In this document: piece after piece, positions 29,622-53,594 of the stretch | Numbering within the stretch: position 1 is the first letter of the stretch | Layout of the letters: the number at the start of each line of letters is the position of its first letter | Origin: Planctomycetia bacterium | GTDB taxonomy: Bacteria > Planctomycetota > UBA8108 > SXIK01 | Assembly (NCBI GenBank): GCA_005772855.1 | Contig: SXIK01000066.1 | Location: 1,532-65,531, forward strand | Length of the DNA stretch: 64,000 nt | Reading direction: 5' to 3' | Made by a program: the position numbers and the translations under genes | Notes under the pieces: model-generated | Seen by the model: the letters and a program-made list of their open reading frames with translations, nothing else | Told to the model about the DNA's origin: nothing | Database searches by the model: none

Positions 29622-31066
29622 CTCCGGAAAAAACTAGCTGGGCATTGGCCCAGGAGATCTTCCATGCCATCGGAATGGCTGCCGTCGCCTCCCAGACGTA
29701 CTCGGTAAGCCATCGGCGGGTTGCGGAGGCGCTCGAGAAGGCGATCAGCCTGATCGAGCATCTCTTCCAGCAATTGACCAAAGCACAACACATTACCTTC
29801 ATGAGAAGCGGTGATCAGATCGAGTTCCGCAATGTCCCCCTGGCAAGAACAGGATACCTGGGCGATCGCCTTGCAAGGGCACTGAAGGCAAGGGGGTGCG
29901 CCGGGCTACAGCTCGAGCGAGGCATCACCGCACAGGATCTGGTCGCCCTCCTCACCGAGTTGCGCTGCGCCCGAATCCCGGACGGCGGATTCTCCGGGGA
30001 AGGAGAGAAGAATCGGGAGGGCGCAGTTCCAAAGTTCCATCTGGCCAGCCAGGCCGAGATCGACGAGATCCGCGCCAAGAACCTCCTTGGCCGCGGGGCG
30101 ACCTGGGGAACCCATGCCATCCCCGACCTCTCGGTATTCGAGGGAACCGCTCAAAATCTTCTCTCCGCCTACCGCGGGGTCTTCGCAAACCTGGGCCAGC
30201 CGATTCGTTTCAGCAAGGGGCTTCTTGCCGAGACCGTCGATCGAGTGGTGGCACTCCTCGGCTCCGAAAAGGAGCGCCTCGTGCTGGGGGCCAGCGGCGA
30301 ATATTTCGACGACTTCACGTACCGTCACTCGGTGAATGTTTGCCTCATCACGGCAATGCTCGCGAGCGAGATCATCAAGGACCCTCAGACTCTGCGCAGG
30401 ATCTCCGTGGCGGCGCTTCTGCATGATGTGGGGAAGGGCCGCGTGCCCGAGGAGATTCTCCACAAGCCTGGGAGGCTCACTCCTGAGGAGGAGGCCGTGG
30501 TGCAACTGCACCCCGGGCACGGGGCAGAGATTCTCCTCGCCGCGGAGGACATGGACCCCCTTTGCATTGCGGTGGCGTTTGGACACCACAAGGTCCTGGG
30601 ACGAAGCCCTTACCCTGGCACGCTTCGGCCGTATACGTGCGACTGGATCACACGCCTCGTCTCAATCGTCGATGTATACGAGGCCCTCACCGCCCAGCGA
30701 CCCTACAAGCGAGGCATGTCCACCGATGCTGCCTTCAAGATCATGCTGACAATGCCTGGAATGGATTCCCAGACACACCTCCTGAGGCTCCTTTACAACA
30801 CCTTGAGTCCCTTCCCCGTCGGGTCACTGGTTGAGCTATCAACCGGCGAACGAGCTGTCGTCACGGGGCTGAATCCTGAGACCCCCCGGCTCCCGAGGGT
30901 TCGAGTCTTGACCGATCCGTCTCGCCAGGAGTTGGCTGAGCCGCTCGACCTGGACCTCTCCCAACCGAGCACCTCGGCCTACCGAGGGACTCCTCGAGTT
31001 GTGAGTCAGGCAGTCGTCAAGCAGTCGCTGGACCACGACGCTCTCGCCGAAAATATCGAGCCCTAG
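29615..31066 (+). CDS. HD-GYP-type (HD superfamily) protein with a degenerate GYP signature; putative c-di-GMP phosphodiesterase or sensor
   Basis: ORF 29147..31066, trimmed to MLTPEKTSW (ATG at 29615, AGGAGG upstream). HD motif LLHDVGKGRVPEEILHKPGRLTPEE, a second His cluster AFGHHKVLGRSPYPG replacing the canonical HHE..DGSGYP, and a roughly 250-aa N-terminal domain of unknown function. Confidence 0.8.
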   Translation: MLTPEKTSWALAQEIFHAIGMAAVASQTYSVSHRRVAEALEKAISLIEHLFQQLTKAQHITFMRSGDQIEFRNVPLARTGYLGDRLARALKARGCAGLQLERGITAQDLVALLTELRCARIPDGGFSGEGEKNREGAVPKFHLASQAEIDEIRAKNLLGRGATWGTHAIPDLSVFEGTAQNLLSAYRGVFANLGQPIRFSKGLLAETVDRVVALLGSEKERLVLGASGEYFDDFTYRHSVNVCLITAMLASEIIKDPQTLRRISVAALLHDVGKGRVPEEILHKPGRLTPEEEAVVQLHPGHGAEILLAAEDMDPLCIAVAFGHHKVLGRSPYPGTLRPYTCDWITRLVSIVDVYEALTAQRPYKRGMSTDAAFKIMLTMPGMDSQTHLLRLLYNTLSPFPVGSLVELSTGERAVVTGLNPETPRLPRVRVLTDPSRQELAEPLDLDLSQPSTSAYRGTPRVVSQAVVKQSLDHDALAENIEP

Positions 31067-32194: not shown

Positions 32195-33274
32195 TTGTCA
32201 CGTAACCACACTATCCACCCTGATGCCATTCCAGCTGGCGTCCTGGTCTTCGCCTCCGATTCGACGCACGGACACTCCGTTTCACTCTTGATTCAGCGTG
32301 CAGGCTTCCGCCGAGTTCTCGAGGCCAGCGAAATGGGGCTGGTGGACGATATCGTGGCGACTGGAGTTGTCCGCGCCGTCTTGCTGGCCATCGACGCAGA
32401 GGCCCCTGAAGCCCCTGGCCTCGTGGCCGGCCTGCGAGCCACGGCCGGGAGGTCAGGAAAGCGGCTCGCGATTCTTGTCCTGGCCCCTCACCCACCCCGT
32501 ACCCCTGTCCCCGCACGCGTCCACCTGGGCATCGACCAGCTGCTCCTGGAGCCGTTTGATCCGCTGGAGTTTGCGGACCAGTTCTCGAGGGTATTCGCCG
32601 ACACACAGTACGCTCCGGAGCCACATCCGGCCGCCTGCGAATGCTTGCCACGAACCGCGATTGCCGCACTCGCCCAGGTTGCCTCCTTGATCGAGCAGCG
32701 AGAGGACCCTTCCGGGAAACACACCGAGCGCGTGGGAGACATTTCCGCGGCCATTGCAAGGGGGATGGAATTCGAGGAGCAAGAGGTCGAGACCCTACGC
32801 CTCGCGGCTCAACTGCATGACCTGGGCAAGGCCTCGGTGGGTGACGCCATTATTCTCAAGCCGAGCCGGCTGACCGGGGAGGAGTTCGAGCGCCTCAAAA
32901 TCCACACCCTGGAAGGCGCCAGATTACTCGAGGGCACAGGACTTCCGCTCCTCGATGCGGCCGCCCAAATCGCGGCGCACCACCACGAGGCGTGGAATGG
33001 GTCGGGATACCCCCATGGCCTCAAGGGAGAGGCCATACCGCTCAGGGGAAGGATTGTGGCGCTGGCGGATTTCTTTGACTCGTTGACTCATGACCGAGTC
33101 TATCGACGCGCGCTCCCGAGGGACTTGGTCATCGAGACCGTGAAGACAAACGCCAACGAGCAGTTTGATCCTGAAGTTGTTCGCGCCTTCCTGAAGATCA
33201 GTAGCTCGACGACCGAGAGCCAAGTAGCGCAAGAAGTACAGCTTGTGGCAGTCACGGGGAGCTCCGAAACTTGA
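32195..33274 (+). CDS. Response-regulator-like receiver domain fused to a canonical HD-GYP c-di-GMP phosphodiesterase domain (RpfG-like)
   Basis: N-terminal CheY-like region (VLVFASDS...AVLLAIDAEAP). C-terminal HD-GYP with LHDLGK and HHHEAWNGSGYPHGL. Confidence 0.85.
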   Translation: MSRNHTIHPDAIPAGVLVFASDSTHGHSVSLLIQRAGFRRVLEASEMGLVDDIVATGVVRAVLLAIDAEAPEAPGLVAGLRATAGRSGKRLAILVLAPHPPRTPVPARVHLGIDQLLLEPFDPLEFADQFSRVFADTQYAPEPHPAACECLPRTAIAALAQVASLIEQREDPSGKHTERVGDISAAIARGMEFEEQEVETLRLAAQLHDLGKASVGDAIILKPSRLTGEEFERLKIHTLEGARLLEGTGLPLLDAAAQIAAHHHEAWNGSGYPHGLKGEAIPLRGRIVALADFFDSLTHDRVYRRALPRDLVIETVKTNANEQFDPEVVRAFLKISSSTTESQVAQEVQLVAVTGSSET

Positions 33275-33912
33275 GAGTCTACAACTCACAAAAGGCCCTC
33301 AAACTGCTCAGCTGGGGGAGTGCGAACACGACACCCAACATCCAGGCGATCGCGACCCCATCCGAGGACCCCGTCACGTCGGTTCTCGTTCAACTGATAA
33401 ACAAAGTGCGTGCGGCAGAGGAAGCGGTTCGCGAGGTGGGCTTTTCTCATGAAGCGACTCAGGCCCTGGGAACCAGCAGCACTGCCACGACCGAGATCCA
33501 ATCCCTGCTGCACCATCTCGAAGCCCTTTTGGCCACTACGGGAGTCCACCCTCGAGGGCGAGAGGCTGCGATCAACGGGTCCTTCCGTCTTTACGGTCCG
33601 ATCCAGAAGCTCTCGCCGGTGGAAGTCATCGAGTTCACACGAAACTCACGGAAAACAGGCTGTGTGACCGTAGAGGATGGAGATTTCATTGGGCTCCTGA
33701 GCATTCTCGACGGTGAGGTCATCTACGCTGAGGCCGGTGACCATCTCGGTTTCGAAGCCTTCTGCGAGATCCTCCAGGCCACCGACGGCAAGGTAGAATT
33801 TTTGAGCCTCCCGATCTCTCCCGAGCAAAGAAACATCCAATACCCGACGGTGGAGCTACTCTTCCGGGCCCTGCAGTCGCTCGACGAGCGAAGCTGTGAG
33901 ATGAGACGCTAG
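33271..33912 (+). CDS. DUF4388-domain protein
   Basis: Start overlaps the upstream stop by 4 nt. The C-terminal block GSFRLYGPIQKLSPVEVIEFTRNSRKTGCVTVEDGDFIGLLSILDGEVIYAEAGDHLGFEAFCEIL follows the DUF4388 pattern. Confidence 0.65.
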   Translation: MRVYNSQKALKLLSWGSANTTPNIQAIATPSEDPVTSVLVQLINKVRAAEEAVREVGFSHEATQALGTSSTATTEIQSLLHHLEALLATTGVHPRGREAAINGSFRLYGPIQKLSPVEVIEFTRNSRKTGCVTVEDGDFIGLLSILDGEVIYAEAGDHLGFEAFCEILQATDGKVEFLSLPISPEQRNIQYPTVELLFRALQSLDERSCEMRR

Positions 33913-35076: not shown

Positions 35077-35220
35077 CGGATCTTCGTCTGCGAAGCAGCC
35101 CTGGCCAGGGACCTTTCGAGGAAGAGCTCGCGGAGACAGAAAATCAGACTCCGAGGAAAGCTATGGGATCGCTGCTTGCGCCTTGATTCGAGGCCCGCAG
35201 CGCTTGTACAACGAGCTCCC

Positions 35221-35967
35221 ATGTCGACTACGCTTCGCCAAAGAATCGCCGCCCGCCGCCGGATCTACTTGCTCCGCCACGGGGAGGTAAACTATTTTGA
35301 CTTGCACGGGAAGCCGTTCCCTCACTACGCGGTGGGGCTGAGCAGTCGAGGGATTGAGCAGGCACGGGCAGCCGCCAGGGCCCTGAGAGAAGCCCCCATC
35401 GACCTCGTAATCCACACAGGGCTCCCGCGGACACAAGCCACCGCGGAGATCACTATTGGAGGCCGACCCGTCCCTGTCGAGATTTCTGAAGCCCTCCGCG
35501 AAGTAAACCCTGGACCCTTCGAGCTTTCGCCCCAAGGCTCCAGGCTTGAGACCTACTTCACGTCCGCTTTCAAGGAAGCGCTGACACGCGAGACGCGGTT
35601 TCTCGGAGGCGAGGCCTACGGGGAGTTCGAGGACAGAGTGCTGCCAGCATTTCGACGCATTGTCGAGAGAGTGAGCTGGAAGCATCTCCTGATCGTGGCG
35701 CACGGAGGCACCAACCGCGTCATCCTCCGTCATGCTCTCCACGCGGGAATGGAGAGCATGGGCCGGATCGAGCAGGAGGCAGGTTGCATCAACATCATCG
35801 ATTTACATGAAAACGATCAACTCCTCGTGCGCCAGATGAACTTCACTCCTTACTCCCCACTGAAAACAAACATCTGGGCCACAACCATGGAGCAGATCTA
35901 TCTCGATTACTTCGATGGCTCACCGAGGACTGTCCTCACAGAGGACCCACACGGAGCAGGGAAGTAG
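35221..35967 (+). CDS. Histidine phosphatase superfamily protein (phosphoglycerate-mutase-like)
   Basis: ORF 35176..35967, trimmed to the ATG at MSTTLRQRIAARRRIYLLRHGE (the RHG catalytic motif); a second conserved His sits in VAHGGTNRV. Confidence 0.8.
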   Translation: MSTTLRQRIAARRRIYLLRHGEVNYFDLHGKPFPHYAVGLSSRGIEQARAAARALREAPIDLVIHTGLPRTQATAEITIGGRPVPVEISEALREVNPGPFELSPQGSRLETYFTSAFKEALTRETRFLGGEAYGEFEDRVLPAFRRIVERVSWKHLLIVAHGGTNRVILRHALHAGMESMGRIEQEAGCINIIDLHENDQLLVRQMNFTPYSPLKTNIWATTMEQIYLDYFDGSPRTVLTEDPHGAGK

Positions 35968-36042: not shown

Positions 36043-37020
36043 TCACCGATCGACGAAACTGGCCATGGGCCGCGTGTGCTGTGAATCTTCCCAGCCGGTC
36101 GCCTGCGCATGAACCCTGTCACGCCCTTCCTTCTTCGCGTGGTAGGTGGCGCTGTCAACACAGCGAACAAGGTCTTCCGGCCCTTTCATTTCGTCGCGGA
36201 GCTGAGCGACTCCAAAGCTCGCCGTCAGGTGGATGGTTCGTTGACCTGCGGTGATCGCAAGTGCCTTGAGCTTTTCACGCAAGCGCTCCGCGTAAAGTGT
36301 CGCACCCTCAAGGTCCGTTTCAGGCAGAATCAAGACCGCTTCTTCACCCCCATAACGGCACGCGAAGTCAGTACCTCGAGCATTCGCCAGCAGCAAATTG
36401 GAGATCTCGATCAGAACCTTGTCCCCGATCGGGTGACCGTAGGTGTCGTTGATCCCCTTGAAGTTGTCGACGTCCATGAGAACAAGAGAGAGCGGACGTT
36501 GGTAACGGCGTGAGCGGTGAAACTCCCGGATGAGCGTGCTCTGGAAAAAGCCACGGTTATATAGGCCTGTAAGCGCATCCGTGCTAGCACTTCTGAGAAG
36601 AGAGTCTTCCGCCCGAAAGGTCACCTCGTCCCAGAGGTAAAAACCGATGAGCGTTCGCCCCAGGAGGATCTTGTCGCCGTTCGATAGCTCCTTGGTGCTG
36701 ATGCGGACACCGTTCACATAAGTGCCATTCCTGCTGTCCAGGTCAGTCAGGGCGATCTGCGGTTTGGCGACTGGCTCACTCAGGTTCGTGAAAATGAATC
36801 GTGCATGGCGGCGGGAGCAATTTGCGTCGTGAAGAACAATATCGGCGGTGTCATCACGGCCCACCGTGAGCTCCTGTTGCTTGATCTCGTATCGCCGCGA
36901 GGTTCGCCGTCCGTCGAGTACGACCAGGACGGCGTGCTCCCTCCCCGACGGGAGACAGGTGGGATCGAGGCCCCAGGGCTGCTGGGCACCGTTCAAGCTC
37001 TTCGTGTCGGGTATTTTCAT
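36043..37020 (-). CDS. FHA-domain-containing diguanylate cyclase (FHA-GGDEF)
   Basis: ORF 36043..37032; the first ATG is at MKIPDTK. FHA block TVGRDDTADIVLHDANCSRRHARF...DLDSRNGTYVNGVRI. GGDEF domain with I-site RGTD and the active-site variant RYGGEEA (GGEEA in place of GGEEF). Confidence 0.85.
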   Translation of the reverse strand: MKIPDTKSLNGAQQPWGLDPTCLPSGREHAVLVVLDGRRTSRRYEIKQQELTVGRDDTADIVLHDANCSRRHARFIFTNLSEPVAKPQIALTDLDSRNGTYVNGVRISTKELSNGDKILLGRTLIGFYLWDEVTFRAEDSLLRSASTDALTGLYNRGFFQSTLIREFHRSRRYQRPLSLVLMDVDNFKGINDTYGHPIGDKVLIEISNLLLANARGTDFACRYGGEEAVLILPETDLEGATLYAERLREKLKALAITAGQRTIHLTASFGVAQLRDEMKGPEDLVRCVDSATYHAKKEGRDRVHAQATGWEDSQHTRPMASFVDR

Positions 37021-37231
37021 TTCATGCTGCAAAGAGAAGCTCTCCCGGACTTCAATCGGCAGCGTCCAGGGAGGGGGTTGACCCTTTGCTTTTCCCGGCC
37101 TTGCTCAATGGTTTGTTATCACCACTTCCAACAAGCTTCGGCGGTTGCGTTGTAAGATTCCGGTGGGCTGGATGCCAGGGCTAGTCGCGCACCCCAGCGA
37201 CTCGCAAAGCGGACTCCAGAGGGGTCCTGGC

Positions 37232-40200
37232 TTATCGACTCAGCTCAATCATTTGCGCCACCGGGACCGAGGCGAACCGACAACCCTCCGCCATGGTTTC
37301 GATGTCCTTCGCTCCGGTGGTCTTGCGATAAGCCTGAGCTTGAGTGGGCTGCAACGTGCGCAGGATCACGTTGAGTCCAGAACTCGCGTGCTTGAATCTG
37401 ACTTCGGCCTCAAGGAAGCGCTTGTTGGCAAGAAATAGTTTGCCCAGCTGGTACCGTGTCTGCCAGAGGATCTCCGGGTAAGGAGCCTGGGCTGCCATGT
37501 TTTCCGCGAAAAGCAAGTTGCGCTCGGCACGGCTAGGTTGGCCACCTGGGATAACGGATTCCAGAGCCGCAGTGGCAAATAAGTAGCGGCACCGCAGGTA
37601 GGAGAGCTGAAGCTTTTCGGCCAAGTGTAGGCCCTCCTCGAAGTTCAGATAGGCTTGCTCATGTTGGCTCCGCTTGAGACACAGAAGCCCGTGCTCCAGA
37701 TACAGGTGCGCCAAGTCCCTCGCGCTGCCATGAGTCGTCAGCATTTCCGTGGCCTCGGTGAATACTTTCTCGGCATTGTCGAGCTTACCCTCGTCGGCCA
37801 GAACCATTCCCTCAATGAGACGAGCCCAGCCACCCAGCGACGGCAAGTCATGATTCCTTGACGCCTCGAATAGAGACACAATGGCCCTGCGCGCCTCGCC
37901 CGTGCGTCCAAGTCGACACAGGAGGTACCCTTGCTGAGTGGTCAGGCGCGCCACTGCGACGTGGCCCCTGAGGTCTCTGGCAGCCAGGACTCCCTCCGCC
38001 ACATGGTTGAGAGCCATGCCGAGATCACCCCTGTAGAGGGCCAGGTCACTCAGAAGCCCAAATATACCCAGCATGCCGGCATTGGAGCCGCGACCGGCAC
38101 CGCTCATCCTCTCCGCTTCCTCAAGATGTCGCTTCGCGTTTTGCAGCTCACCCTTGTCGCTGGCAACTCCGGCCATTGTGAGAAGGGTCTGCAGAGTCAG
38201 GCGACGCTTCTCGAGTGGCCCCATACGTCGCAACGCTTCCTCAATGACCTCGTGGCAAGCATCATATTCGCCCAGCAATCGGCACACTTCGGCAAGCGTA
38301 CAAAGAGCCGCCACGGAGTGGCACAAGTTGCCGGTTTTCGCGTAGAGGGACACTGCCTCCTCGAGGCTGGCTCGGGCCTCAACCTGGTTTCCTATCAGGT
38401 GGTACAATATGCCAATCTCTCGATGGCAGTCGGCCTGCCCGTCCAACGCACTGGTCTTGCGCCGCAGAAGGAGGCAAAGCTGAAACTGACGCAAAGCCTT
38501 GTGGAAATGTCTCTGATAGAGGTGGTACTTTCCACGACAGTACAGGCTCCAGGCCAACAGCTTTGAATCGTGCTGAGCCTCAATTAACCGCAGGGCCGTC
38601 TGGCAGTGACCGATCGCATTCTCCGAGCTGTTCAAGACAGAGTGATTCTCTGCTATCAGCATGTGGAGCTGCGACAAGAAGTATGGGTCTTTGAGCTCAC
38701 AGTTTGATTTCAAGAGTCGAGTACAGCATCGGAGGCTCTCAACAAGGTTGCCCTTGTAATAATGGAGTTCCGCCAGGGCCATCATGATGGCCGCCAACTC
38801 TGCCGTGGACTCACTGCCCTTGTCGGGTCGAACTGAGCGGTTCAGAAGAGCAGTGGCCTGGTCGAATCGTCCAAGCCGAGCGTAAGCCCGCGCCGCTTCG
38901 AGATAGACGCTGACCTTCTCCTGTCGCTTCAAGTCAGGCGGAAGTCGAGTGAGGTCAAGCAGATCAAGCGCTGCACTGTAGTCGCCGACCTGAAATTTCA
39001 GGGAAGCAATCGCACGCTCAATCTGAAAACGCAGGCTGCGCTCATCCGGTCCAACAAGGCCAAGCACTCGTTCGTAAGTCTCCATCGCCTGGATGGGAGC
39101 AAACTCTCTCGCCAGGTCCTTTGCCGCCTCGATTCCATACCGAATTCCCTTCTCCTTGTTCCCGGCTCGAATGTAGTGGTGAGCCAGGATCCTGGAGGAA
39201 TCCTTCCCAAGCGAGGCGACTCGCGACTCGCAAAGGACACCCGCTTTTTCGTGATACGCGGAGCGTTGCTCCTCCGGAATGCTGTTGTAAAGGATGGCTC
39301 GGGCGCTCGAGTGCACAAAGGAATAAGCACCCGCCCGATTCTCCGCGCCGCCACCCTGCAAAATTCTTTCAAGCGTCAAGACTTCCAAGCACTTCACGGC
39401 ATTCCGTTCGGGAATTCCTGACAGATGGACAGCGACGTCAAGCTCACACACGTCGCCCATGCAGGCGAAGGCTCTTCCTATCTGAAGCACTTCCTCTGGC
39501 AGTTTCGTGATGCGATACTTGAGCTCACGGCGGACCTTACCGGGAAGATCCTCGCTTTCGTAGTCGCTCCCCAGCGCCCAGCCCTGTGCCACCCGTGCAA
39601 TCTTGCCCCGGTGAAGAAGGTGTCGGAGGATGTCAATGACGATCTCAGTGTTGCCATCGCTTTCCTCGAGCACTCTCTGAACGAACGCCTCGGGACATTC
39701 GAGCCCGACGAAGGCGGTGCGCACAAATTCCGCAACCTTCTGCTCATCAAATCGCCGCAACTCAATCTCGAGTACGTTCTCTCGAAAAAACGTCGTGTCG
39801 CAAAGACGCAGGAAATCGCTGCTTCCCAGCTCGGCTCGCTCAAGGACGGTGCCCGTCATGAGAAGCTTTGATCGGGCCACGGATCCCCCCAGCGAGGAAC
39901 GTATCAGAGACTCGAGCAGATGCAAGATTGGCGTGCCGGCCAGGTGCAGGTCGTGAAAGCAAACCACGATCGGAGACTCCTGGCTGGCTTTCAGAAGCGC
40001 GTGAACTGCCTCCTTGAGCACAGGCTCGTACCCCTGGACGGGATTGTCCTTCAAGTCCTGAAGCCTCTGCACAAACCCAAACGCATTTTCGACGAAGGTC
40101 AAGGATCGCACTCTTCCGCGCAACTCGTCAATCGCACCAAGGTCGGCCACAATGCGTTCGAAGCCCTGCCCCGCCCTGGAATGGGCACCACATTCAATCT

Positions 40201-41419
40201 GGATAAATTTTGCTCCTTGCGCCTGTACGATCGCTCTGAACTCCTCGATCAGACGTCTTTTCTGTAACCCTTTCTCCCCACGCACCAGCACCAGTCGACC
40301 CGCCGGAACGGGGGTCACAGCGTCGACACGATCCAATGGCTCTGACTTGTCCACGGCATCGCTTTCGACTTCCTCCTCGGCGCCTATCACGCTGGATTTC
40401 AGGGAGGCCGCGGCAACGAAAATCTCGTAAAGCCTCGCCGACTCCGCCTCTCGTCCAGCAAGACGTGCAGCTTCAAGATAGCTATCAGAAGTCTCTGCCG
40501 TCTCGTACGGAAGCTTGAGCCCAAGAGCTCGGTTTATCGCCTCGATAACTTCAAGCGCGCTTTGAAAGCGATCCTGAGGCTTCTTCGCCATGAGCCTGAG
40601 AATGATGTTGCCAAACTCAAGGGGCAATGACGCCGACAGGGTATGTGGTGGTACGGCAGGCTGCTCAACGTGGCACTTGAGGATTTCAATATTCGAAGCG
40701 CCTCGGAATGGTGGGCTGCCGGTGCACAGGTGGTACAGCACCACGCCAAGTGAGTAGAGGTCCGTACGACGGTCGATCTGAGCGCCAAGGATCGTTTCAG
40801 GAGCAACATAGTAAGGAGTCCCCAGGATTTTCTTGCCGCCCGAGAGTCGCTCCTTTTTCACAAGACCAAAGTCGATGATCTTGACGAGCGGTTTTTCTCT
40901 TGATCCCGGTTGCAGTGAAACCTCTGTAGTCACCAGAATGTTTTCGGGCTTGATGTCCGAGTGTACGAGTCCACGCCCATGAATGTACTCAAGCCCACGC
41001 AAGACTTGGGCAGCAAGCTCAACGAAAGTCAGAAACCCCTCCTGTGACTTCATGTTGAGTTTTTGCGTGGCCTTCATCCAGCTTTGGCCGTTAACAAACT
41101 CGAACGTGAAGAAGAGATCTCCCGATTCGTAATCAATACCAAACTCGTACGCTGGCGTCAGGTTGGGATGTGGAAGCCCCGAAAGCGCCAGGAACTCATT
41201 CTTGAGGATATTAAGGGTACGCCGGTCTATCTTGTCCTTCCTGACTCGCTTCAGAGCTACAGGTTTTTCACCTTGAGAGAGGTCCAGGGCGAGATAGACA
41301 GCCCCCATTCCGCCCTGTCCGAGTAGGCGAATGGACCGATATCGGCCGTTCAGCAACTCCCCTGAATTCGGGTCACTTGCTACTTCTGGCCGGATAACTG
41401 GTGGGGTGGGCAAGCTCAT
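37232..41419 (-). CDS. Multidomain Ser/Thr protein kinase: N-terminal Hanks-type kinase, central STAND/AAA_16-like NTPase module, C-terminal TPR repeat array
   Basis: ORF 37232..41527, trimmed to MSLPTPPV. Kinase motifs GQGGMGAVYLA, VALKRV, HSDIKPEN, DFGL, YYVAPE. A P-loop-like GEKGLQKR (apparently degenerate Walker A) and hhhhD Walker B VVCFHDLH. At least 600 aa of TPR-like helical repeats at the C-terminus. Confidence 0.85.
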   Translation of the reverse strand: MSLPTPPVIRPEVASDPNSGELLNGRYRSIRLLGQGGMGAVYLALDLSQGEKPVALKRVRKDKIDRRTLNILKNEFLALSGLPHPNLTPAYEFGIDYESGDLFFTFEFVNGQSWMKATQKLNMKSQEGFLTFVELAAQVLRGLEYIHGRGLVHSDIKPENILVTTEVSLQPGSREKPLVKIIDFGLVKKERLSGGKKILGTPYYVAPETILGAQIDRRTDLYSLGVVLYHLCTGSPPFRGASNIEILKCHVEQPAVPPHTLSASLPLEFGNIILRLMAKKPQDRFQSALEVIEAINRALGLKLPYETAETSDSYLEAARLAGREAESARLYEIFVAAASLKSSVIGAEEEVESDAVDKSEPLDRVDAVTPVPAGRLVLVRGEKGLQKRRLIEEFRAIVQAQGAKFIQIECGAHSRAGQGFERIVADLGAIDELRGRVRSLTFVENAFGFVQRLQDLKDNPVQGYEPVLKEAVHALLKASQESPIVVCFHDLHLAGTPILHLLESLIRSSLGGSVARSKLLMTGTVLERAELGSSDFLRLCDTTFFRENVLEIELRRFDEQKVAEFVRTAFVGLECPEAFVQRVLEESDGNTEIVIDILRHLLHRGKIARVAQGWALGSDYESEDLPGKVRRELKYRITKLPEEVLQIGRAFACMGDVCELDVAVHLSGIPERNAVKCLEVLTLERILQGGGAENRAGAYSFVHSSARAILYNSIPEEQRSAYHEKAGVLCESRVASLGKDSSRILAHHYIRAGNKEKGIRYGIEAAKDLAREFAPIQAMETYERVLGLVGPDERSLRFQIERAIASLKFQVGDYSAALDLLDLTRLPPDLKRQEKVSVYLEAARAYARLGRFDQATALLNRSVRPDKGSESTAELAAIMMALAELHYYKGNLVESLRCCTRLLKSNCELKDPYFLSQLHMLIAENHSVLNSSENAIGHCQTALRLIEAQHDSKLLAWSLYCRGKYHLYQRHFHKALRQFQLCLLLRRKTSALDGQADCHREIGILYHLIGNQVEARASLEEAVSLYAKTGNLCHSVAALCTLAEVCRLLGEYDACHEVIEEALRRMGPLEKRRLTLQTLLTMAGVASDKGELQNAKRHLEEAERMSGAGRGSNAGMLGIFGLLSDLALYRGDLGMALNHVAEGVLAARDLRGHVAVARLTTQQGYLLCRLGRTGEARRAIVSLFEASRNHDLPSLGGWARLIEGMVLADEGKLDNAEKVFTEATEMLTTHGSARDLAHLYLEHGLLCLKRSQHEQAYLNFEEGLHLAEKLQLSYLRCRYLFATAALESVIPGGQPSRAERNLLFAENMAAQAPYPEILWQTRYQLGKLFLANKRFLEAEVRFKHASSGLNVILRTLQPTQAQAYRKTTGAKDIETMAEGCRFASVPVAQMIELSR

Positions 41420-41560
41420 GGAATCCTGCCCGTAGAATACGATGCGAAAGCCGGACGGGTAAGGCTGCCCTGGAGAAGAGGAACTTCCAAGGCGCCCTGG
41501 CGGCCAGGAAGCGGACAGGCCCGACAAGTGAGGCCATCCTCAAATGAAAGGCTCGGGCTA

Positions 41561-42709
41561 CTATTCAAGTCGCAGATCTGCGACTCGGAGGCCCCTTTGC
41601 ATTCGGCACAGTGTGGGGCAGGCCACTTTGACCGCTATGGGAATGATTTCCTGACCTAGCCGCCATGCCGCCTCCGGGGGTGGTGACTGGGTGGGGTGGA
41701 TCAAGAACACTTGCTCCTCGGCCAATTCCAGGAGACTGGCCTTTCCCGGGATCCAATTGGGTGACGCGCAGGCATATGCTGCCTCCAAACTCGACAGATA
41801 GGCTGCGATGTTCTCGTTTCCTTCAGCAGGCAGAGGAGCCTTCGCCATTCCGTAGCTGCCAAACGCTCCACTTCCGCTACTCCCGGAGCGCTGCAGAAGA
41901 ATCTCCGGAACGAGCGCCGACAAGAGGATGAATTCAGCAGTTCTGCTGGCCACCACTTCAAGATTGGCGGAGACCATGAATGCTTGATCAAAGGCCCTCG
42001 AGTTTTCGATCTCCTGAATTGCGCCGCGGAAGCTGCCCCACGCCTTCGGAAAGGGTCGTGTCAGAAGGTGCAGCACTGTTCGCCCTCTTGAGCCTCGCCC
42101 GAAAAATTCCCGGAGGTCGAGTAGCAAGTCTGGCAATACAGTCACCCAGGGATCTTCTATCCCAATAACAACATGGGCCGTAACCCTGGACTCATGAGAC
42201 TTCGCGAGGTGCTCTGCCAGAAGAGGTAGTGGGCTATTGGTGCCTGCGGTTGCTCTATACAACGCACGTAGATACTCTCCATATCTTGGATTGAAAGTGA
42301 CTTCTGTCTCGCTGTTCGATTCAAAAATCACAGGAATCACCTCCGGGGCCAAGTCTCTGCCGCGGGACGTCTCCAGGTCAAGATAGAAGAGTTGCGGGAA
42401 GGCGCCTGGCTTTCGCTGTTGGGCCAACGCCGCAAGGGTGGCTCGTCCCATTTCGCCAATCGCGATCACTGCCGTCTGAGCATCTGGACCTCCGAGTATG
42501 TCGGCAGCTTCTATCACCCTCCCAAGAGGTAGAGACAGGAGTTGGCCATCGAGCGCGCCTGCGTGAAGGAGCATGGAGCTTGCACCGAGGAGGTCTTTCA
42601 AACTCTCCAGGTCGACAGGTTCCGAAAGCGCCTCTTCGATCAGGCCCCGCAGCTGGCTGAACGCACCGGGTTCACCCAAGCGCAGAGCCACATCTTCCGT
42701 CCAGCTCAT
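41561..42709 (-). CDS. Hypothetical protein, 382 aa
   Basis: The long ORF is on the cluster strand and its stop is 142 nt upstream of the kinase start. Codon usage matches its neighbours; no motif recognised. Confidence 0.55.
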   Translation of the reverse strand: MSWTEDVALRLGEPGAFSQLRGLIEEALSEPVDLESLKDLLGASSMLLHAGALDGQLLSLPLGRVIEAADILGGPDAQTAVIAIGEMGRATLAALAQQRKPGAFPQLFYLDLETSRGRDLAPEVIPVIFESNSETEVTFNPRYGEYLRALYRATAGTNSPLPLLAEHLAKSHESRVTAHVVIGIEDPWVTVLPDLLLDLREFFGRGSRGRTVLHLLTRPFPKAWGSFRGAIQEIENSRAFDQAFMVSANLEVVASRTAEFILLSALVPEILLQRSGSSGSGAFGSYGMAKAPLPAEGNENIAAYLSSLEAAYACASPNWIPGKASLLELAEEQVFLIHPTQSPPPEAAWRLGQEIIPIAVKVACPTLCRMQRGLRVADLRLE

Positions 42710-43326
42710 GGCGCAGACCCCGGGTTGTCATTCCTTTGTCCGCCCCTTGCCCGCTGTCGTGGCCTGGACCCAAGAAGAACGGAAAGCTGCTCGAGGCCTT
42801 GCTTCGCAACGTGCAGCAAGTCACGCCGTACAAGATCGAGCGCAATCTTGATCCGCTCGGCACGTCGGTCAAGGAGGAGAAGTCGCGAACGAAACTTGAA
42901 CCCCACGTGCGCGCCAACTGGGTACTCCGCAAAAGACCTCTCCAGGGTCTTTTCCTCGCCAACGAACGCCTCTATCTCCGGGAGCATTCTTTCCCAGCGG
43001 GACCCAAGTGCTTCGAAGCCATGGGGCACTTCCTCATACTCGACTCCCTTGCCTGAAATAACACTGCTCCCACTCAACAAGGGTGCAAGAAAGAATCGAG
43101 AGATCCTTGCCCAGGCGTCGCACACTCGTTGCCCGCTTCGAGCCTCATCGAGAATTCCAAGGCTGCGAGATGCCTCTCGGAACGCTTCCACCGCTCTGGA
43201 CAGGCTTTCGAGGCGCCGCTCAGCATCCAGCAACCCACCGATGGCAGACACGAGTTCCTCGGGCTTTGCACCGGGAGAATCCACGGTCGAAAGAGACTCT
43301 CTGATAAATCCTGGCAGGCGGCTCAT
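42706..43326 (-). CDS. Hypothetical protein, 206 aa
   Basis: Stop overlaps the start of the downstream 382-aa gene by 4 nt (translational coupling). Largely helical-looking; no motif recognised. Confidence 0.5.
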   Translation of the reverse strand: MSRLPGFIRESLSTVDSPGAKPEELVSAIGGLLDAERRLESLSRAVEAFREASRSLGILDEARSGQRVCDAWARISRFFLAPLLSGSSVISGKGVEYEEVPHGFEALGSRWERMLPEIEAFVGEEKTLERSFAEYPVGAHVGFKFRSRLLLLDRRAERIKIALDLVRRDLLHVAKQGLEQLSVLLGSRPRQRARGGQRNDNPGSAP

Positions 43327-43380
43327 TCGATCAAGACCTCAGGCAAGGTTTCCTTCCCATCTCTTTCCACAGAGGCTGAT

Positions 43381-45477
43381 TCACGTCCTTGCCAACTCGG
43401 CGCTCCGTATGCCGCCAAGAACACGAATGAAGACTGCCTCATCGTTCACTGAATGACGAAGGTCGTTCTCTCGCGAGTATTTCAAGAAATCAGCTCCAAA
43501 GCACCGCAAGAGCTCATCTCGGTCACCAGGGCGCGCCCAGAGCGGGGCCGAGGCCTCGCTCAACCGTTCCAGGAGATCTTCAGGATGGTCGTCAAAGATC
43601 TCCAAGACCTTGTCCACGTCGAGCATCTGGGCCTTCTCTCTTCCCCAGGCAGCCGCGCTTTCCTCAGCCATTTCCGTTGGCGTCAAGGCGCCAGGCAAGG
43701 GAGAAATCCGATTCAGAAGCCCCGGCACGAGCGCCTCTACCGCGGAGCGTCCACCCATCCAATCGTAAATCTTGCGCGAGCCGTCCGCCGGAAAAACGTC
43801 ACCGGAGAAGCCGCGTCCAGCTTCCCAGCTTTCGACTTCAGCAAGCTGAAGTCTCCAGCTTTCCACTGACTCGCGCAGTGAATTAACACAGCGGTCCAGG
43901 AAGACAAGCCCGGATTCTTCTTCCTTTGCAGTCTCCAAATCCGCGGCGAGACTCGCCTTCAAGGAGTCAAGACGCTCCTTCTCCTCAGGCTCCACCTGAT
44001 TCCTGAGCTCCCCCCAGAGCTGAATCGAGATGCCCGAGGTAATTCGGCGCATCTTCTCACGACGGCTGTAGTGCTCCAGCGCACGCGGGACTGGAAAACC
44101 AGCTGTGAAACTGCCTTCAGGAAATTCACCCAGCGTAAACGTCTCCCTGGACCATCGCAGTCGTATGAACCAACCCAGGGCGAATCCAAGGAGAGCCCCG
44201 ATGCCGAACCCGCTGAGATATCCGGCCAGATTCAGCCCGCTCAAAAGAAATCCCAGAAACGACCCTGCCAGAGCACCACCCAGGATGGTGGGAAGGAAAG
44301 GCATGTACACCGGGAGAAGCACCGAGACTCGTGCGATCCAGCTGTCGCGCATCGGCGTCTCGAGCGAAAGGGCCTCGTTTTCTTGACGTATGTTCTCGAT
44401 GCGCTGAGCAGCCTCTCCAAGACGCTCGAAAAGCGCCAACTGCACCCGATCGAGCGCAGTCGCCCACCCGCCAAGGCTCGGAGTCCGAGCTACATCCAAG
44501 GAACTGATCCATTCCACGATATGGTTTTCGATTCTCTTCTGACCGTCAGTTTCCAATGACGCCTTCATCTGAAGCAGCAAGTCAAGGAAGGCGCCACAAT
44601 CAGTACCATCAGGAGCCACGGGCTTTGCCGTGAACGTTCGCGAAAGCGCTCGCTTCAAGTCTCTTTTCAGGAGCCTGCTCAGCTCGTCAGCCAGCGCGTC
44701 CTTGCTGAATCTAAAACGCGACAGCCCCATTGAGCTGAGCCCGACGATGCCTTCCTCCTCTGAACCTCGCCCATGCAAGTCAGCCACCTGGGGAAATGTT
44801 CGCCAAATATCGGCGGAGGCCTCGCTCGCACTTCCCAGAGCGAGGAAGTCAGACAAGAGCTCGGTGAGGTCTTCCCATCGCTCCAGTGGGTGTCCATTTC
44901 GATTGACACGATCGAGGATAATCGAGGGGAAAAGCACGCCTCTTTGCACAAGCCCTTCGAGCCTTCGTAGCCCCTTGAGAGCCTGATCGCGCTCCATGTC
45001 TTCGTCCGTCGACGGCAAGTGAAACAGTGGGAAGATTCCTCTCGCGCGCCCTGCCGCCGGTGGCGCCTCGTTTCGATTATGGATCTTCTCCGCAATCGCG
45101 AAAACGATCTCCCACCCCAGGGTATCGGACAGGCATTCGACCAGATAAATGTCCGGTCCTCCTCTTACTACCTGGAAGCATGTGTCAACCTCGGCCGGAC
45201 GCCGTAGGGCATCGGTACGCACCCGGATATTTCCGATCGCCGCCGATGCATAGGTAAGAGTCTGCCAAAGCTGATTCTGAAGATTCCCTTCGAATGAGGG
45301 GAGCTTGGAGCGCTTTGAGCCCAGCTTCAAATCAATGGACTCTTCGGTGACGGAGAGAAAGGAGAAAACATCTGGAACGACACCCAATCGCCTCCGAATC
45401 GCCACGGGAACCGAGGCGTAAAGATCCGGCGCCAGCTTCCCAAAAAAGCAAAAAATGCTCGGACGGACGGCAATCAC
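43381..45477 (-). CDS. 698-aa hypothetical protein with a central cluster of transmembrane helices
   Basis: Start lies 3 nt after the tubulin-like gene stop. Central hydrophobic segment ARVSVLLPVYMPFLPTILGGALAGSFLGFLLSGLNLAGYLSGFGIGALLGFALGWFIRL, flanked by large soluble, charged, coiled-coil-like regions. Confidence 0.6.
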   Translation of the reverse strand: MIAVRPSIFCFFGKLAPDLYASVPVAIRRRLGVVPDVFSFLSVTEESIDLKLGSKRSKLPSFEGNLQNQLWQTLTYASAAIGNIRVRTDALRRPAEVDTCFQVVRGGPDIYLVECLSDTLGWEIVFAIAEKIHNRNEAPPAAGRARGIFPLFHLPSTDEDMERDQALKGLRRLEGLVQRGVLFPSIILDRVNRNGHPLERWEDLTELLSDFLALGSASEASADIWRTFPQVADLHGRGSEEEGIVGLSSMGLSRFRFSKDALADELSRLLKRDLKRALSRTFTAKPVAPDGTDCGAFLDLLLQMKASLETDGQKRIENHIVEWISSLDVARTPSLGGWATALDRVQLALFERLGEAAQRIENIRQENEALSLETPMRDSWIARVSVLLPVYMPFLPTILGGALAGSFLGFLLSGLNLAGYLSGFGIGALLGFALGWFIRLRWSRETFTLGEFPEGSFTAGFPVPRALEHYSRREKMRRITSGISIQLWGELRNQVEPEEKERLDSLKASLAADLETAKEEESGLVFLDRCVNSLRESVESWRLQLAEVESWEAGRGFSGDVFPADGSRKIYDWMGGRSAVEALVPGLLNRISPLPGALTPTEMAEESAAAWGREKAQMLDVDKVLEIFDDHPEDLLERLSEASAPLWARPGDRDELLRCFGADFLKYSRENDLRHSVNDEAVFIRVLGGIRSAELART

Positions 45478-45480
45478 AAA

Positions 45481-48210
45481 CTACTCCGCCTCCGATTCAC
45501 GCACAGAATCCGTGGAATCGGCCAGGCCCCACTTGCCCAGACGCAAGAAGCGGTCGAGCCCGGACGCCTCGTTCCAGGCCACCTTCGCGTCTTCGCCACC
45601 CAACGAATCCACGTTGCTCTCGTCCTCGCGACAGGCTCCGGCAAGACGGAATGCTTCCTTGGCCCACAGCTCAAGGACACCTGGGATCTCCCGGTTTCGA
45701 TGCCGTTTTCGCAGCTCGAGGAGAACTCTGTCCCGCACGATCCTTGGGTTCGACTGGTAGACTCTCCTGAAAGCCTTGTACGCTCCAGCGCGCCCCTTCA
45801 AATTGGGCTCCTCCGGCGTCACCAGGCCGCGCAACGCGAACTGCGCATCGTCTGTGGAGACGACAAAACCAAGCCGCACCGCCAGACCAAACAGCTCGTA
45901 GACTTCGGCATCGAGGCCGGGATAGGGATTCGCTATCATCCAATCCGAGGAAAGCCATTCGTCGTTTGCACGCCGCCGCTGGTTCGAAAATGCGTACCGC
46001 ACAAAGTCTTCGTGATAGTCTTTCAGCCAGCGGATGTGATGCAACGGGGCACCATGATCCACCTTGAGCAGCGTCACCTGTCCGTAGCCATCGGTGCTGC
46101 ATCGGTCGCTCTCGGGCTCGATGACAGGCTCGATCTCGCTCGATCGGGGGCAACCGATCCTGCGGATACGTTCAACTTGATCCTGTTCACCCTCGATGCT
46201 CCAGTTGACTTGCACCTGGCTTTCCATCTCCGAAAGGCGCTCCCGAATGACGGAGACAGGCATGAGACTGCCCTGTTGACCAAAGTAGGAGCTACACTCC
46301 TCCTGGAACTCCTCGCGGACTTGGTTGGAAACAGCCAGGCAGGTCTCGACAAGCTTTGTTGTTGGAGGGCCCAGATAGAGTGCCGTGGCGAAACGCTTGA
46401 GCCCGCGAATCATCGACTCGGCGACCTCCGCAGGGACGTCGCTCATGCGGTAAAAGCTTCCGCCATGGCGGGAGTGAGGCGTATCACCATTCACCGAGGC
46501 ACGCAGGTTGAGGCGAGTCACGAAGTCCTTCTTGATTCGAAGAGTCTCTTGCCTCTCTAGGCGTTCCTGAAGGTCCCGCACGAAGTTCTGAATCTCTTGG
46601 CGCTCAAGCTTCAAGTGGTGCTCTCGAAGCACAACCTGATCACATCGCCTCCACACTTCAACACGCTGCACACTTTCGGCGTCGTCACGCTGCTGCTTGC
46701 GGATCTCCTCAAAAAACTGCACTTCACCTTCGAGAATCTTGGCCTCCTCCGGATCGATCAACCGAAGGTCGCGAAGCTCCTGCAAGCTCTTCGTGAGGTG
46801 AATCAAGAACGTGCGGAGGAAGGTGGGCTCGACCCCCTGCCGGTTGAAATACTTCGTGAGCTGAGACAAGTTGTTGTCCCATTCCTCGCGGAGCGCAAGC
46901 TCAATGGAGCTTCGCCACGGGTCATGAGTTTCACGACGGATTCGATTGAGGGTCTCTTGATGCTGGTTGATATCGCGGTTGATTTCCGGCAGCTCGACCA
47001 TCCCTTTTCTGCCCATGACCGAGTGGAAGGATGCCAGATCCACAAGCGCGCTCTGCACGTGTCGGTTGGCTTCCTCCTCCAGCCGCTCCAGCACCCCCTG
47101 GCGAAAATCTACGATGAGTGGGTTGGATTCGTCTGTTTCGAGGACTGGAGAGCCTTGCAGGAATTCGGCGATCTTGTGGTTGAAGTAGTCCTTCAGCGCG
47201 CCCCGTGACAGGTCTCGATAGCCTGCTCCGAAGGAGCAGTAGACCGTGGGTTCTCCGTATTGGTCTTTCTGGGAGAGGCAGCTCTCCCAGAGGTTAATCG
47301 CGGCAGCACGATAGCTCTCTCCTTCCTTTCCCAGCGCGCTCAACCCTATGAATCTGCCGATCTCGCGACAGAGATCTTCTCTCACTTGCAAGCTACCGTC
47401 GGGCCGGCCCGCGTTGAGCAGATAGAGGAAGTTGAAAGGGATCATCGGGATGACCTGCTTCTCATCTCGATACTGCGCTTGCCAGCAGCCTTCCTTGAAA
47501 AAATGGTTGATCTCGGAGAGGACTGCAAAGGCATTTCTGCGAAAGTTGAGCTGCCGTGACTCGGAGAGGGCGAATGCCTCGGGCAGGAGCATGTATCCTG
47601 TAACGACAGGGTCCTTGCCCGTGATGCGCTCGGCCCAATCACGGATGTCGTAGACTGCAGGTAGCAGCATTCCGCCGCCAGTACCCCCGGCGCAAGAGGA
47701 GACGACGTGAATCTGAATCCCACTCCTCAGACGTGGGCGAATGAGGCTCTTGTAGTAGTGGAACTCGCGATCTTCAACTTGAGGAGAGCTCAGGCGCCGG
47801 ATCTTGTCCGAAAGGCGACCGTAGACGAGCCTCCCGTCCCGCCGGATGGCGTAGCAAAGGCGCCCAACGTGGCGGATGCCTCCAGCTCCAAGCGTCAACT
47901 CGCCTGGAAGATAGCGGCTCCTGGGGAACCAGGAAATCTCCGGGTACTCCTCCCGATGCGCGAGCACACTCTGCAAGTTGAATCCTCCCAGATCCGAGAA
48001 TTCATCCGCATTGAGGGCGGCCATGTCAGGGCCATTTGCAATCGACATCTGCTCCGTGGTGTCGAGCACCAGGAGCTCGACAAAAGGAATATCAGAAAAG
48101 TCGGGCGTGCTCAACTCACGCTGAAGCAAGGCCTTGACGTGTTTGGCCACGAGCTGACCTGTGCCGCCAAGCCCAAGGATGAGTGTCAGTGGAACCCGCC
48201 GTTCCTCCAT
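45481..48210 (-). CDS. Divergent FtsZ/tubulin-superfamily GTPase, 909 aa, with a long C-terminal charged/coiled-coil extension
   Basis: N-terminal roughly 300 aa carry the superfamily loops in order and plausible spacing: T1 LILGLGGTGQLV; T3 LTLGAGGIRHVG; T4 signature VVSSCAGGTGGGMLLP (compare GGGTG[ST]G). A possible T2 acidic loop is LVLDTTEQM. The rest is rich in Glu/Arg/Gln heptad-like sequence. Confidence 0.7.
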   Translation of the reverse strand: MEERRVPLTLILGLGGTGQLVAKHVKALLQRELSTPDFSDIPFVELLVLDTTEQMSIANGPDMAALNADEFSDLGGFNLQSVLAHREEYPEISWFPRSRYLPGELTLGAGGIRHVGRLCYAIRRDGRLVYGRLSDKIRRLSSPQVEDREFHYYKSLIRPRLRSGIQIHVVSSCAGGTGGGMLLPAVYDIRDWAERITGKDPVVTGYMLLPEAFALSESRQLNFRRNAFAVLSEINHFFKEGCWQAQYRDEKQVIPMIPFNFLYLLNAGRPDGSLQVREDLCREIGRFIGLSALGKEGESYRAAAINLWESCLSQKDQYGEPTVYCSFGAGYRDLSRGALKDYFNHKIAEFLQGSPVLETDESNPLIVDFRQGVLERLEEEANRHVQSALVDLASFHSVMGRKGMVELPEINRDINQHQETLNRIRRETHDPWRSSIELALREEWDNNLSQLTKYFNRQGVEPTFLRTFLIHLTKSLQELRDLRLIDPEEAKILEGEVQFFEEIRKQQRDDAESVQRVEVWRRCDQVVLREHHLKLERQEIQNFVRDLQERLERQETLRIKKDFVTRLNLRASVNGDTPHSRHGGSFYRMSDVPAEVAESMIRGLKRFATALYLGPPTTKLVETCLAVSNQVREEFQEECSSYFGQQGSLMPVSVIRERLSEMESQVQVNWSIEGEQDQVERIRRIGCPRSSEIEPVIEPESDRCSTDGYGQVTLLKVDHGAPLHHIRWLKDYHEDFVRYAFSNQRRRANDEWLSSDWMIANPYPGLDAEVYELFGLAVRLGFVVSTDDAQFALRGLVTPEEPNLKGRAGAYKAFRRVYQSNPRIVRDRVLLELRKRHRNREIPGVLELWAKEAFRLAGACREDESNVDSLGGEDAKVAWNEASGLDRFLRLGKWGLADSTDSVRESEAE

Positions 48211-48296
48211 GGAATCTCCTCAAGATACCGAACAACTTCGAGACTTGGCGCGCAGGTTATCTCTCGAGTCGCATGAGCGCCGGAATTGAGTCATGA

Positions 48297-53585: not shown

Positions 53586-53594
53586 GGTGTTGAA

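Follow-up and report, generated by a model that had tools for sequence, protein, structure and literature searches.

Organization of the kinase-cyclase locus

The subject of this analysis is a pair of neighbouring genes in a 64,000-nucleotide stretch of contig SXIK01000066.1 from a Planctomycetia bacterium (called the window below). The open reading frame (ORF) list and the translations place both genes on the minus strand. The upstream gene encodes a large Hanks-type Ser/Thr kinase, and the next gene encodes a protein with FHA and GGDEF domains, a predicted diguanylate cyclase. An earlier interpretation of this DNA from its letters alone (the sequence-only reading) had seen here phosphorylation-gated synthesis of cyclic di-guanosine monophosphate (c-di-GMP). 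By profile comparison the Pfam domain matches of both proteins are strong, well past what chance would give. Those relatives of either protein for which an organism is named are Planctomycetota metagenome-assembled genomes (MAGs).

The kinase gene occupies positions 37232..41419 (minus strand) and encodes a kinase-STAND-tetratricopeptide repeat (TPR) protein of 1395 amino acids (aa), predicted to be cytoplasmic; ORF, translation, Pfam matches and an identical public gene call support the assignment. A mechanical ORF starting at TTG 41527 gives 1431 aa (37232-41527), which is the length quoted in the sequence-only reading, while an ATG at 41419, the very coordinate at which that reading ended the locus, gives 1395 aa. 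The shorter form is the one used in public gene calls (P0121), and a full-length orthologue of 51% identity has the same start point, aligning from residue 23. Because the public calls and the orthologue alignment agree, we use the length of 1395 aa; the gene proposed earlier is present and its length is corrected.

The gene of the tail-FHA-GGDEF cyclase (36043..37032, minus strand) was delimited by ORF, translation and Pfam. It can start at ATG 37020, giving 325 aa, or at TTG 37032, giving 329 aa. The TTG start corresponds to the public call P0001 (329 aa) and has the sequence GGGAGAG 6-7 nucleotides (nt) upstream. The 329-aa form is present among public proteins and the 325-aa form has no exact-sequence match there. 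The intergenic gap (37033..37231, minus strand) measures 199 nt from the kinase stop to the TTG or 211 nt to the ATG, in agreement with the spacing of about 212 nt and the gene order proposed earlier. A promoter and terminator scan of this gap found no terminator-like or sigma-70-like site, Rfam gave no match in the gap or elsewhere within the window, and a comparison with the gap between the orthologous genes of locus L004 (see below) detected no conservation. Upstream of the kinase lie six closely packed minus-strand genes (41561-55475), among them those of a Tubulin_2 protein and a vWA protein, which were searched against Pfam, NCBIfam and PADLOC and are called the Tubulin_2/vWA cluster here.

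The FHA-GGDEF protein

The search for homologues of the cyclase returned more than 6,600 proteins at E <= 1e-20, of which 120 were listed and 29 aligned. All 120 listed homologues share the FHA-GGDEF architecture, so this layout is common.

The GGDEF domain covers residues 145-302 (36115..36588, minus strand; Pfam GGDEF E 1.4e-45) and aligns to 3IGN, DgcB and DgcR (6ZXM). It contains D148-A-L-T151 (DxLT), D183-V-D185, N191, D200, K296 and R300. The I-site R215-G-T-D218 (RGTD; 36367-36378, minus strand) is followed by F-A-C-R-Y and then GGEEA, which puts the RxxD five residues before the A-site, a spacing equal to that in PleD. The A-site itself reads RYGGEEA (residues 222-228; 36337-36357, minus strand). 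Both motifs were verified by translation and lie where the sequence-only reading had put them. In the 29-homologue alignment D183, D185, N191, G224, G225, E227, K296 and, in the I-site, R215 do not vary; D200, D218 and R300 occur in 90% or more of the sequences. Guided by the residue range of the match to PleD, we take D183, N191, D200, K296 and R300 to be the counterparts of PleD D327, N335, D344, K442 and R446. The presence of Asp200 speaks for an enzyme specific for GTP and against one of the Hypr type.

Within G224-G-E-E-A228 the four residues with a known catalytic or binding role are present, and the fifth is Ala instead of the usual Phe. Of the 120 listed homologues 117 could be scored at this position: F 95, I 12, M 5, V 2, L 2 and A 1. 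The distribution is different in the nearest 12 relatives (I 7, V 2, L 1, A 1, F 1), in which GGEE, the catalytic residues and RxxD are unchanged. Since the clade tolerates I, V and L there, the fifth position is better regarded as a hydrophobic packing position than as a catalytic one, and the pattern fits a packing site that has been relaxed in this clade, not a decaying active site. In the AlphaFold model the GGDEF blocks have a predicted local distance difference test score (pLDDT) of 92-98, with 97 for the A-site hairpin, and Foldseek superimposes the domain on 3IGN with a root mean square deviation of 1.1 A over 165 columns and on PleD with 1.3 A. The suggestion that GGEEA marks a regulatory rather than a catalytic domain is not borne out by the alignments, and the fold match (pLDDT above 90, 1.1 A to a solved GGDEF domain) also disfavours a regulatory-only role. 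From these residues we consider it quite probable that the cyclase is enzymatically active despite GGEEA.

The FHA domain (residues 29-130; 36631..36936, minus strand) is recognised by Pfam at residues 52-121 (E 1.5e-19) and is modelled as a beta-sandwich. Its phosphothreonine-binding residues, G54-R55, S69-R-R-H72 (S69-x-x-H72) and N98-G99, are invariant in the 29 homologues. The Arg/Ser/Asn triad, the loss of which, together with an inactive GGDEF domain, the sequence-only reading had named as refuting its proposal, is therefore kept. In the FHA loop S96-R-N98-G99 (36724-36735) an Arg precedes the Asn in the window protein and in several relatives; most homologues have Thr in this place (S-T-N-G), as does DgcB.

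N-terminal to the FHA domain is a disordered tail (36937..37032, minus strand) with a candidate phospho-acceptor Thr, which we single out on the basis of pLDDT, a motif shared by the clade and the precedent of T14 in DgcB. The mean pLDDT of the cyclase model is 86.6, and residues 1-23 are below 50. The tail carries PDTKSL (36994-37011), in which the Thr is T6 in the 325-aa numbering or T10 in the 329-aa numbering and has Leu at +3. In 15 of 17 clade members a Thr lies within approximately the first ten residues, with D, E or K before it and L, F or D at +3. A loose form of this motif occurs in 51 of 109 homologues, against 25 expected from shuffled tails, and the FHA-GGDEF proteins adjacent to kinases at loci L014 and L008 have the tail motif ETVV.

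The kinase

The Hanks kinase domain covers residues 27-286 (40562..41341, minus strand; coordinates verified by translation) and matches Pfam Pkinase with E 1e-44. A Gly-rich loop GQGGMG, A-L-K57, H153-S-D-I-K-P-E-N160, D183-F-G and A206-P-E208 were found. The kinase family comprises about 55 full-length relatives of 1300-1450 aa and 32-77% identity, Planctomycete wherever the organism is named. In a 54-member alignment GxGGMG, A-L-K, H-[G/S]-D-x-K-P-x-N, DFG and APE are invariant in 53-54 members. The Arg of HRD is replaced by Ser or Gly across the family, which makes this a non-RD kinase. The upstream protein is predicted to be a soluble, catalytically intact non-RD Hanks kinase and, with its catalytic motifs invariant in the family, should be active.

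A linker at residues ~343-367 contains Ser and Thr and is disordered (pLDDT below 50 in the AlphaFold model). It leads into a nucleotide-binding module of STAND type (residues 367-508; 39896..40321, minus strand), recognised through an AAA_16 match, the family alignment and AlphaFold/Foldseek comparison. The AAA_16 score of 30.1 bits is just below the Pfam gathering cut-off of 32.6. Further on, residues ~776-1272 (37604..39094, minus strand) form a TPR/MalT-like helical repeat array (TPR_12 E 6e-20, TPR_MalT E 7e-15). Pfam thus recovers the arrangement of kinase, NTPase-like module and TPR array that had been proposed, its AAA_16 part below threshold.

The Walker A position reads GEKGLQKR (residues 381-388; 40256-40279), which does not conform to the GxxxxGK[S/T] signature. 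The sequence-only reading had noted this degenerate motif correctly, and the alignment adds that a non-canonical form is nearly family-wide: most members have GExGxGK-R and GKS occurs in just 2 of 54. The GEKGLQKR form, in which Gly has become Gln and the P-loop Ser/Thr has become Arg, belongs to the sub-clade whose members are at least 60% identical. Likewise, the strand in the place of Walker B, IVVCFHDL (39947-39970), departs from its signature, hhhhD[D/E]; the first acidic position is His in 30 of the 54 family members, giving H-D in place of D-D. The fold is nevertheless STAND-like in the model, although neither Walker signature is present: for residues 301-840 (pLDDT 84.9) the best PDB matches in Foldseek were the STAND-TPR protein 6MFV, 2QEN, CED-4, Apaf-1 and NOD2, each with a probability of 1.0 and with low TM-scores (0.24-0.33). 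Since Walker A has lost the Ser/Thr that would coordinate Mg, the module is probably a pseudo-NTPase. Switching driven by nucleoside triphosphate (NTP) is doubtful because GK-R and H-D are the majority state of this Planctomycete family. A metagenome scan with the STAND-TPR alignment returned two short loci only, neither with an FHA-GGDEF gene downstream.

Relatives of the kinase show some further associations. Longer proteins of ~1650-1713 aa exist (P0144, P0146, P0147, P0150, P0154, P0155, P0157, P0160, P0161), and most of them, P0147 and P0150 being the exceptions, carry a C-terminal Sigma54_activat AAA+ domain; by domain content these would be Ser/Thr kinases fused to an enhancer-binding-protein ATPase. 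The distant orthologue at locus L093 adjoins a gene for an Hpt protein (12303-12680), and the one at locus L096 adjoins the gene of an Hpt-containing hybrid histidine kinase (7386-9365). These neighbours hint that the kinase family interfaces with phosphorelays in other genomes.

Conservation of the kinase-cyclase pair

At locus L004 the two genes again stand next to each other on one strand: a kinase orthologue (51% identity over 1361 aa) and, immediately downstream of it, an orthologue of the FHA-GGDEF gene (57%). The genes before this kinase (PLD, SnoaL and others) are unrelated to those of the window, and no Tubulin_2/vWA cluster is present. A different arrangement is seen at locus L092, which holds the closest kinase orthologue with a visible downstream flank. 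The next gene there is an SDR on the opposite strand and not an FHA-GGDEF gene. The sequence-only reading had placed the cyclase at the end of a gene cluster; this describes the window and does not extend to these two loci, the L004 pair standing without the Tubulin_2/vWA cluster and the L092 kinase following cluster genes without an FHA-GGDEF partner.

The SDR of L092 is 78% identical to an SDR found two genes before the cyclase at locus L088. From this shared gene we infer, for a third lineage, the order kinase, SDR, LTD-CotH, cyclase, so that kinase and FHA-GGDEF are probably separated there by two opposite-strand genes. In the cyclase orthologues of L088 and L089 the upstream gene is LTD-CotH on the opposite strand; at locus L090 only 244 nt upstream of the cyclase are visible. 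Judged from these gene orders, direct adjacency of kinase and cyclase is probably ancestral for the group, yet it is not obligatory. The LTD-CotH gene (L088 1056-5159, minus strand; L089 1-2385, minus strand) is large and divergently oriented and occupies the place of the Hanks kinase; CotH has an atypical protein kinase fold.

Similar pairs were also found elsewhere. Same-strand tandems of a kinase followed by an FHA-GGDEF gene are present in two MAGs, one of Pseudomonadota (51-nt gap) and one of Pirellulaceae (147 nt), with kinases quite different from that of the window, and a Polyangia MAG has a divergent kinase/FHA-GGDEF pair. As a background we used 80 GGDEF loci of species-representative genomes, taken from among the matches listed; these are distant relatives with at most 39% identity, and a contig profile scan with the clade alignment, which ran on a generic GGDEF pattern, gave no close cyclase orthologues among the matches listed. 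A Hanks kinase was located within 4 kb in 4 of the 14 FHA-GGDEF loci and in 2 of the 66 other GGDEF loci of this set (Fisher p = 0.008).

Comparison with known systems

The top Foldseek match of the cyclase in the PDB is full-length DgcB of Bdellovibrio bacteriovorus, 6HBZ (E 4e-26). The sequence match to 6HBZ has E 6e-34 and extends over residues 39-303, covering both FHA and GGDEF, which makes DgcB the closest solved protein of the whole architecture. In DgcB (Bd0742, Meek et al. 2019) phosphorylated T14 of the protein's own disordered tail binds the FHA cleft and activates the enzyme, and the activating kinase was not identified; T96, which precedes the FHA Asn, hydrogen-bonds the tail peptide (PMC6733907). 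The two proteins are about 30% identical. They agree in architecture, size, a consensus FHA cleft, a helical linker with DxLT, a GGEE-type A-site, RxxD and the conserved Thr of a disordered tail at the N-terminus. They differ in the tail motif (D-T-K-S-L in the window cyclase, E-K-T-S-x-V in DgcB), in the residue before the FHA Asn (Arg in place of Thr), in the fifth A-site residue (Ala in place of Phe) and in that a candidate kinase is encoded next to the window cyclase, whereas for DgcB none has been assigned.

A single polypeptide of 974 aa from Sorangium fuses a plain kinase to tail, FHA and GGDEF (PMC6733907). As in the window, a Hanks kinase and a tail-FHA-GGDEF protein are genetically linked, and such linkage, in the fusion as in the pair, implies that the kinase feeds the cyclase. 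The window differs from the published description of Sorangium in having two genes and a kinase with an 1100-aa STAND-like/TPR extension. In the actinobacterial proteins GarA and OdhI, PknB or PknG phosphorylates the FHA protein's own tail Thr, which then binds its own FHA domain (PMC6733907). The tail motif of these proteins is ETTS, and their output is steric inhibition of metabolic enzymes with no attached enzymatic domain, which sets them apart from the window cyclase.

PleD and WspR resemble the window cyclase in the GGDEF fold (1.3-2.7 A in Foldseek), in GGEE and in an RxxD five residues upstream, and their activation by phosphorylation-driven dimerisation is similar to what we propose below. 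Their input is different: a receiver Asp phosphorylated by a histidine kinase, as opposed to FHA and phosphothreonine. MalT/PknK-type proteins such as PknK of M. tuberculosis combine a Hanks kinase, a STAND NTPase and a MalT-like TPR sensor. The window kinase has the domain order of the PknK type and differs from it in the Arg and Gln of the P-loop and in the H-D of Walker B. Overall, motifs and fold suggest that the window cyclase is best read as a further DgcB-type phospho-gated cyclase, here linked to a kinase, and not as a new kind of system.

Proposed mechanism and alternative explanations

We propose that the two genes encode a relay from Ser/Thr phosphorylation to c-di-GMP. A signal read by the TPR/pseudo-STAND part would switch or localise the kinase, which would phosphorylate the Thr in the tail of the cyclase (T6/T10, within D-T-K-S-L). 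The phosphorylated tail would dock in the FHA cleft, in cis or on the partner subunit, and docking would rearrange the dimer to bring its two GGDEF active sites face to face. The enzyme would then make c-di-GMP up to a level capped by product inhibition through RxxD. In this scheme the Ala variant would leave the enzyme active, perhaps with a lower stability or rate, and the STAND-like module would act as a scaffold or switch without NTP hydrolysis. Domain identities, motifs, fold and synteny are observed at the locus and its relatives, while phosphotransfer and activation are carried over from DgcB by analogy. The phospho-gated c-di-GMP synthesis of the sequence-only reading is thus strengthened by the FHA triad, the likeness to DgcB and the conserved pair, and it leans on DgcB for these two steps. 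We would give the complete chain an even chance of being correct.

Several observations weigh against the relay. A kinase lies directly upstream in only two of the seven lineages of the FHA-GGDEF clade, the window and L004, and the cyclases of L006 and L091, both less than 50% identical, have no kinase nearby. From the kinase side, neither an FHA-GGDEF nor a cluster partner is found in four of eight lineages (L096, L094, L095 and L093); orthologues without either partner are 53, 47, 45 or 43% identical. In the window, and likewise at the loci of the orthologues with 77% and 66% identity, the genes ahead of the kinase are instead those of the 698-, 206- and 382-aa proteins of the Tubulin_2/vWA cluster or their homologues. 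The enrichment test given above ignores taxonomy, and Planctomycetes and Myxococcota are rich in kinases. The gap of 199-211 nt allows separate transcription of kinase and cyclase. As to the components themselves, domain searches of the window proteins found no PP2C phosphatase, and the tail sequence I-P-D-T-K-S-L differs from that of DgcB and GarA (hydrophobic residue at -3, Glu at -2, Ser at +1). Among the 120 listed homologues the fifth-position Ala of the A-site is unique, and a literature search on the replacement of the GGDEF Phe found no experimental data for Phe-to-Ala.

One alternative is that the kinase serves the Tubulin_2/vWA cluster and that its adjacency to the cyclase is a by-product of local gene arrangement. 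In that case another of the many Planctomycete kinases would phosphorylate the cyclase, or the cyclase would bind another phosphoprotein. The cluster encodes proteins of 626 aa (weak TPR match), 1762 aa (N-terminal vWA), 909 aa (Tubulin_2, FtsZ-like), 698 aa, 206 aa and 382 aa. Its genes are tightly spaced, with gaps of -4 to 86 nt, and the kinase gene follows 141 nt behind. This spacing, the recurrence of the 698-, 206- and 382-aa homologues before the two closest orthologues and the SDR in place of an FHA-GGDEF gene at L092 all favour such a role. So does a published survey, which noted that Planctomycetes have Tubulin_2 proteins whose N-terminus is a kinase domain (PMC9871819). However, no kinase-Tubulin_2 fusion occurs among the nearest 150 Tubulin_2 relatives, three of which have N-terminal extensions without a kinase domain, and a word-based search for such fusions found close 909-aa orthologues only. 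The L004 kinase keeps its FHA-GGDEF partner with no cluster genes upstream, and more distant kinase orthologues have neither context. A Tubulin_2 orthologue whose NCBI accession number is close by, and which probably belongs to the same MAG, is encoded on a different contig. The kinase-then-FHA-GGDEF tandems of other phyla would also be left unexplained. On balance we consider dedication of the kinase to the cluster unlikely.

An extension of the same idea treats all eight same-strand genes as one system, in which the TPR/pseudo-STAND kinase would watch over an assembly of the tubulin-like and vWA proteins and report its state as c-di-GMP through the cyclase. We regard this as highly doubtful. 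If true, it would connect second-messenger signalling with a prokaryotic tubulin-like machine that is still poorly understood, and the GK-R/H-D module seen across the family would be a STAND switch that works independently of nucleotide.

A second alternative concerns the phosphothreonine that is bound. Recruitment of FHA proteins to autophosphorylated Hanks kinases is established for mycobacterial FHA proteins and is common for FHA proteins. The FHA domain of the window protein could likewise dock on a phosphothreonine of the autophosphorylated kinase, in its linker or activation segment, and not on its own tail. The TPR/STAND scaffold would then recruit the cyclase to produce a local pool of c-di-GMP, and gating would consist of recruitment, not of a tail switch. 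The disordered Ser/Thr-containing linker at residues ~343-367 and the adjacency of the two genes are compatible with this. On the other side stand the tail Thr motif, which is conserved in the cyclase clade, and DgcB, the closest solved relative, which uses its own tail; moreover, non-RD kinases would usually be independent of activation-loop phosphorylation. Docking on the kinase therefore seems quite unlikely to us.

Finally, the GGEEA protein might be catalytically dead or crippled and act as a c-di-GMP receptor through RxxD or as a phospho-dependent adaptor, as the unique Ala against a Phe majority (95/117) and the retained I-site might suggest, but this is very unlikely given that the residues known for binding metal, GTP or phosphate (D183, N191, D200, G224-G-E-E227, K296 and R300) are all kept without variation throughout the clade, that the clade tolerates I, V or L at the fifth position, that the hairpin has a pLDDT of 97 within a canonical fold, and that known receptor-type GGDEF proteins have degenerate A-sites, unlike the window cyclase.

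With regard to the relay itself, the conserved, operon-like pair offers a kinase-substrate candidate for the DgcB class, as do the simpler tandems in other phyla. If the relay is real, the pair shows Ser/Thr phosphorylation feeding c-di-GMP signalling in Planctomycetes. Two further points are of use: the I, V, L and A that occur naturally as fifth GGDEF residue suggest a packing rather than a catalytic role for it, and the GK-R/H-D kinase family of ~55 members is well suited to the question of whether a STAND module can function when it does not hydrolyse NTP. Current concepts are unchanged by these findings.

Neighbouring genes

For the cluster upstream of the kinase, the 698-, 206- and 382-aa proteins had no match in Pfam, NCBIfam or PADLOC, and NCBIfam searches of the window proteins gave domain-level matches only, below their cut-offs. 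At least 15 relatives have a Tubulin_2 protein of 70-86% identity to that of the window, so this protein is more conserved than the kinase or the cyclase. In PADLOC the kinase domain alone matched the stand-alone models PD-T4-6 and mad6, and there was no match for the cyclase or the six cluster proteins. An interpretation of the kinase-cyclase pair as a defence system was dropped because no match supported it, the kinase matches being generic.

The order vWA protein, tubulin-like protein, 679-aa hypothetical protein, which resembles vWA, Tubulin_2, 698-aa protein in the window, was observed on plasmid pMtWR-220 of Meiothermus taiwanensis (locus L097, 7210-13643). There the trio adjoins BrxL, a Swt1 HEPN protein and DUF1156, in what looks like a defence island. 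The trio was set aside, the flanking proteins having no detectable pairwise similarity to those of the window.

The rest of the window contains ordinary chromosomal genes, among them IspG, BamA, ferrochelatase and a CO-dehydrogenase-like operon, and domain searches found no second FHA gene in it. Two HD_5 (HD-GYP family) proteins and a PATAN/DUF4388 protein are encoded at 32195-33274, 29147-31066 and 33271-33912 (all on the plus strand), the HD_5 genes 3-7 kb from the cyclase gene. One HD_5 protein has a complete HHE...GSGYP behind a receiver-like N-terminus, and the other a degenerate S-P-Y-P. By predicted domains, these genes and that of the cyclase form a local c-di-GMP turnover cluster.

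A gene for a phosphoglycerate-mutase-like histidine phosphatase (His_Phos_1) is found at 35176-35967 (plus strand) of the window and at L004 13241-13972, L089 4602-5354 and L090 2427-3170. Its distance downstream of the FHA-GGDEF gene is no more than about 3 kb in these four lineages, with 50-62% identity, and three of them also have an acyl-CoA dehydrogenase gene with it. The phosphatase may be a candidate partner of the pair, or its position may reflect synteny and nothing more.

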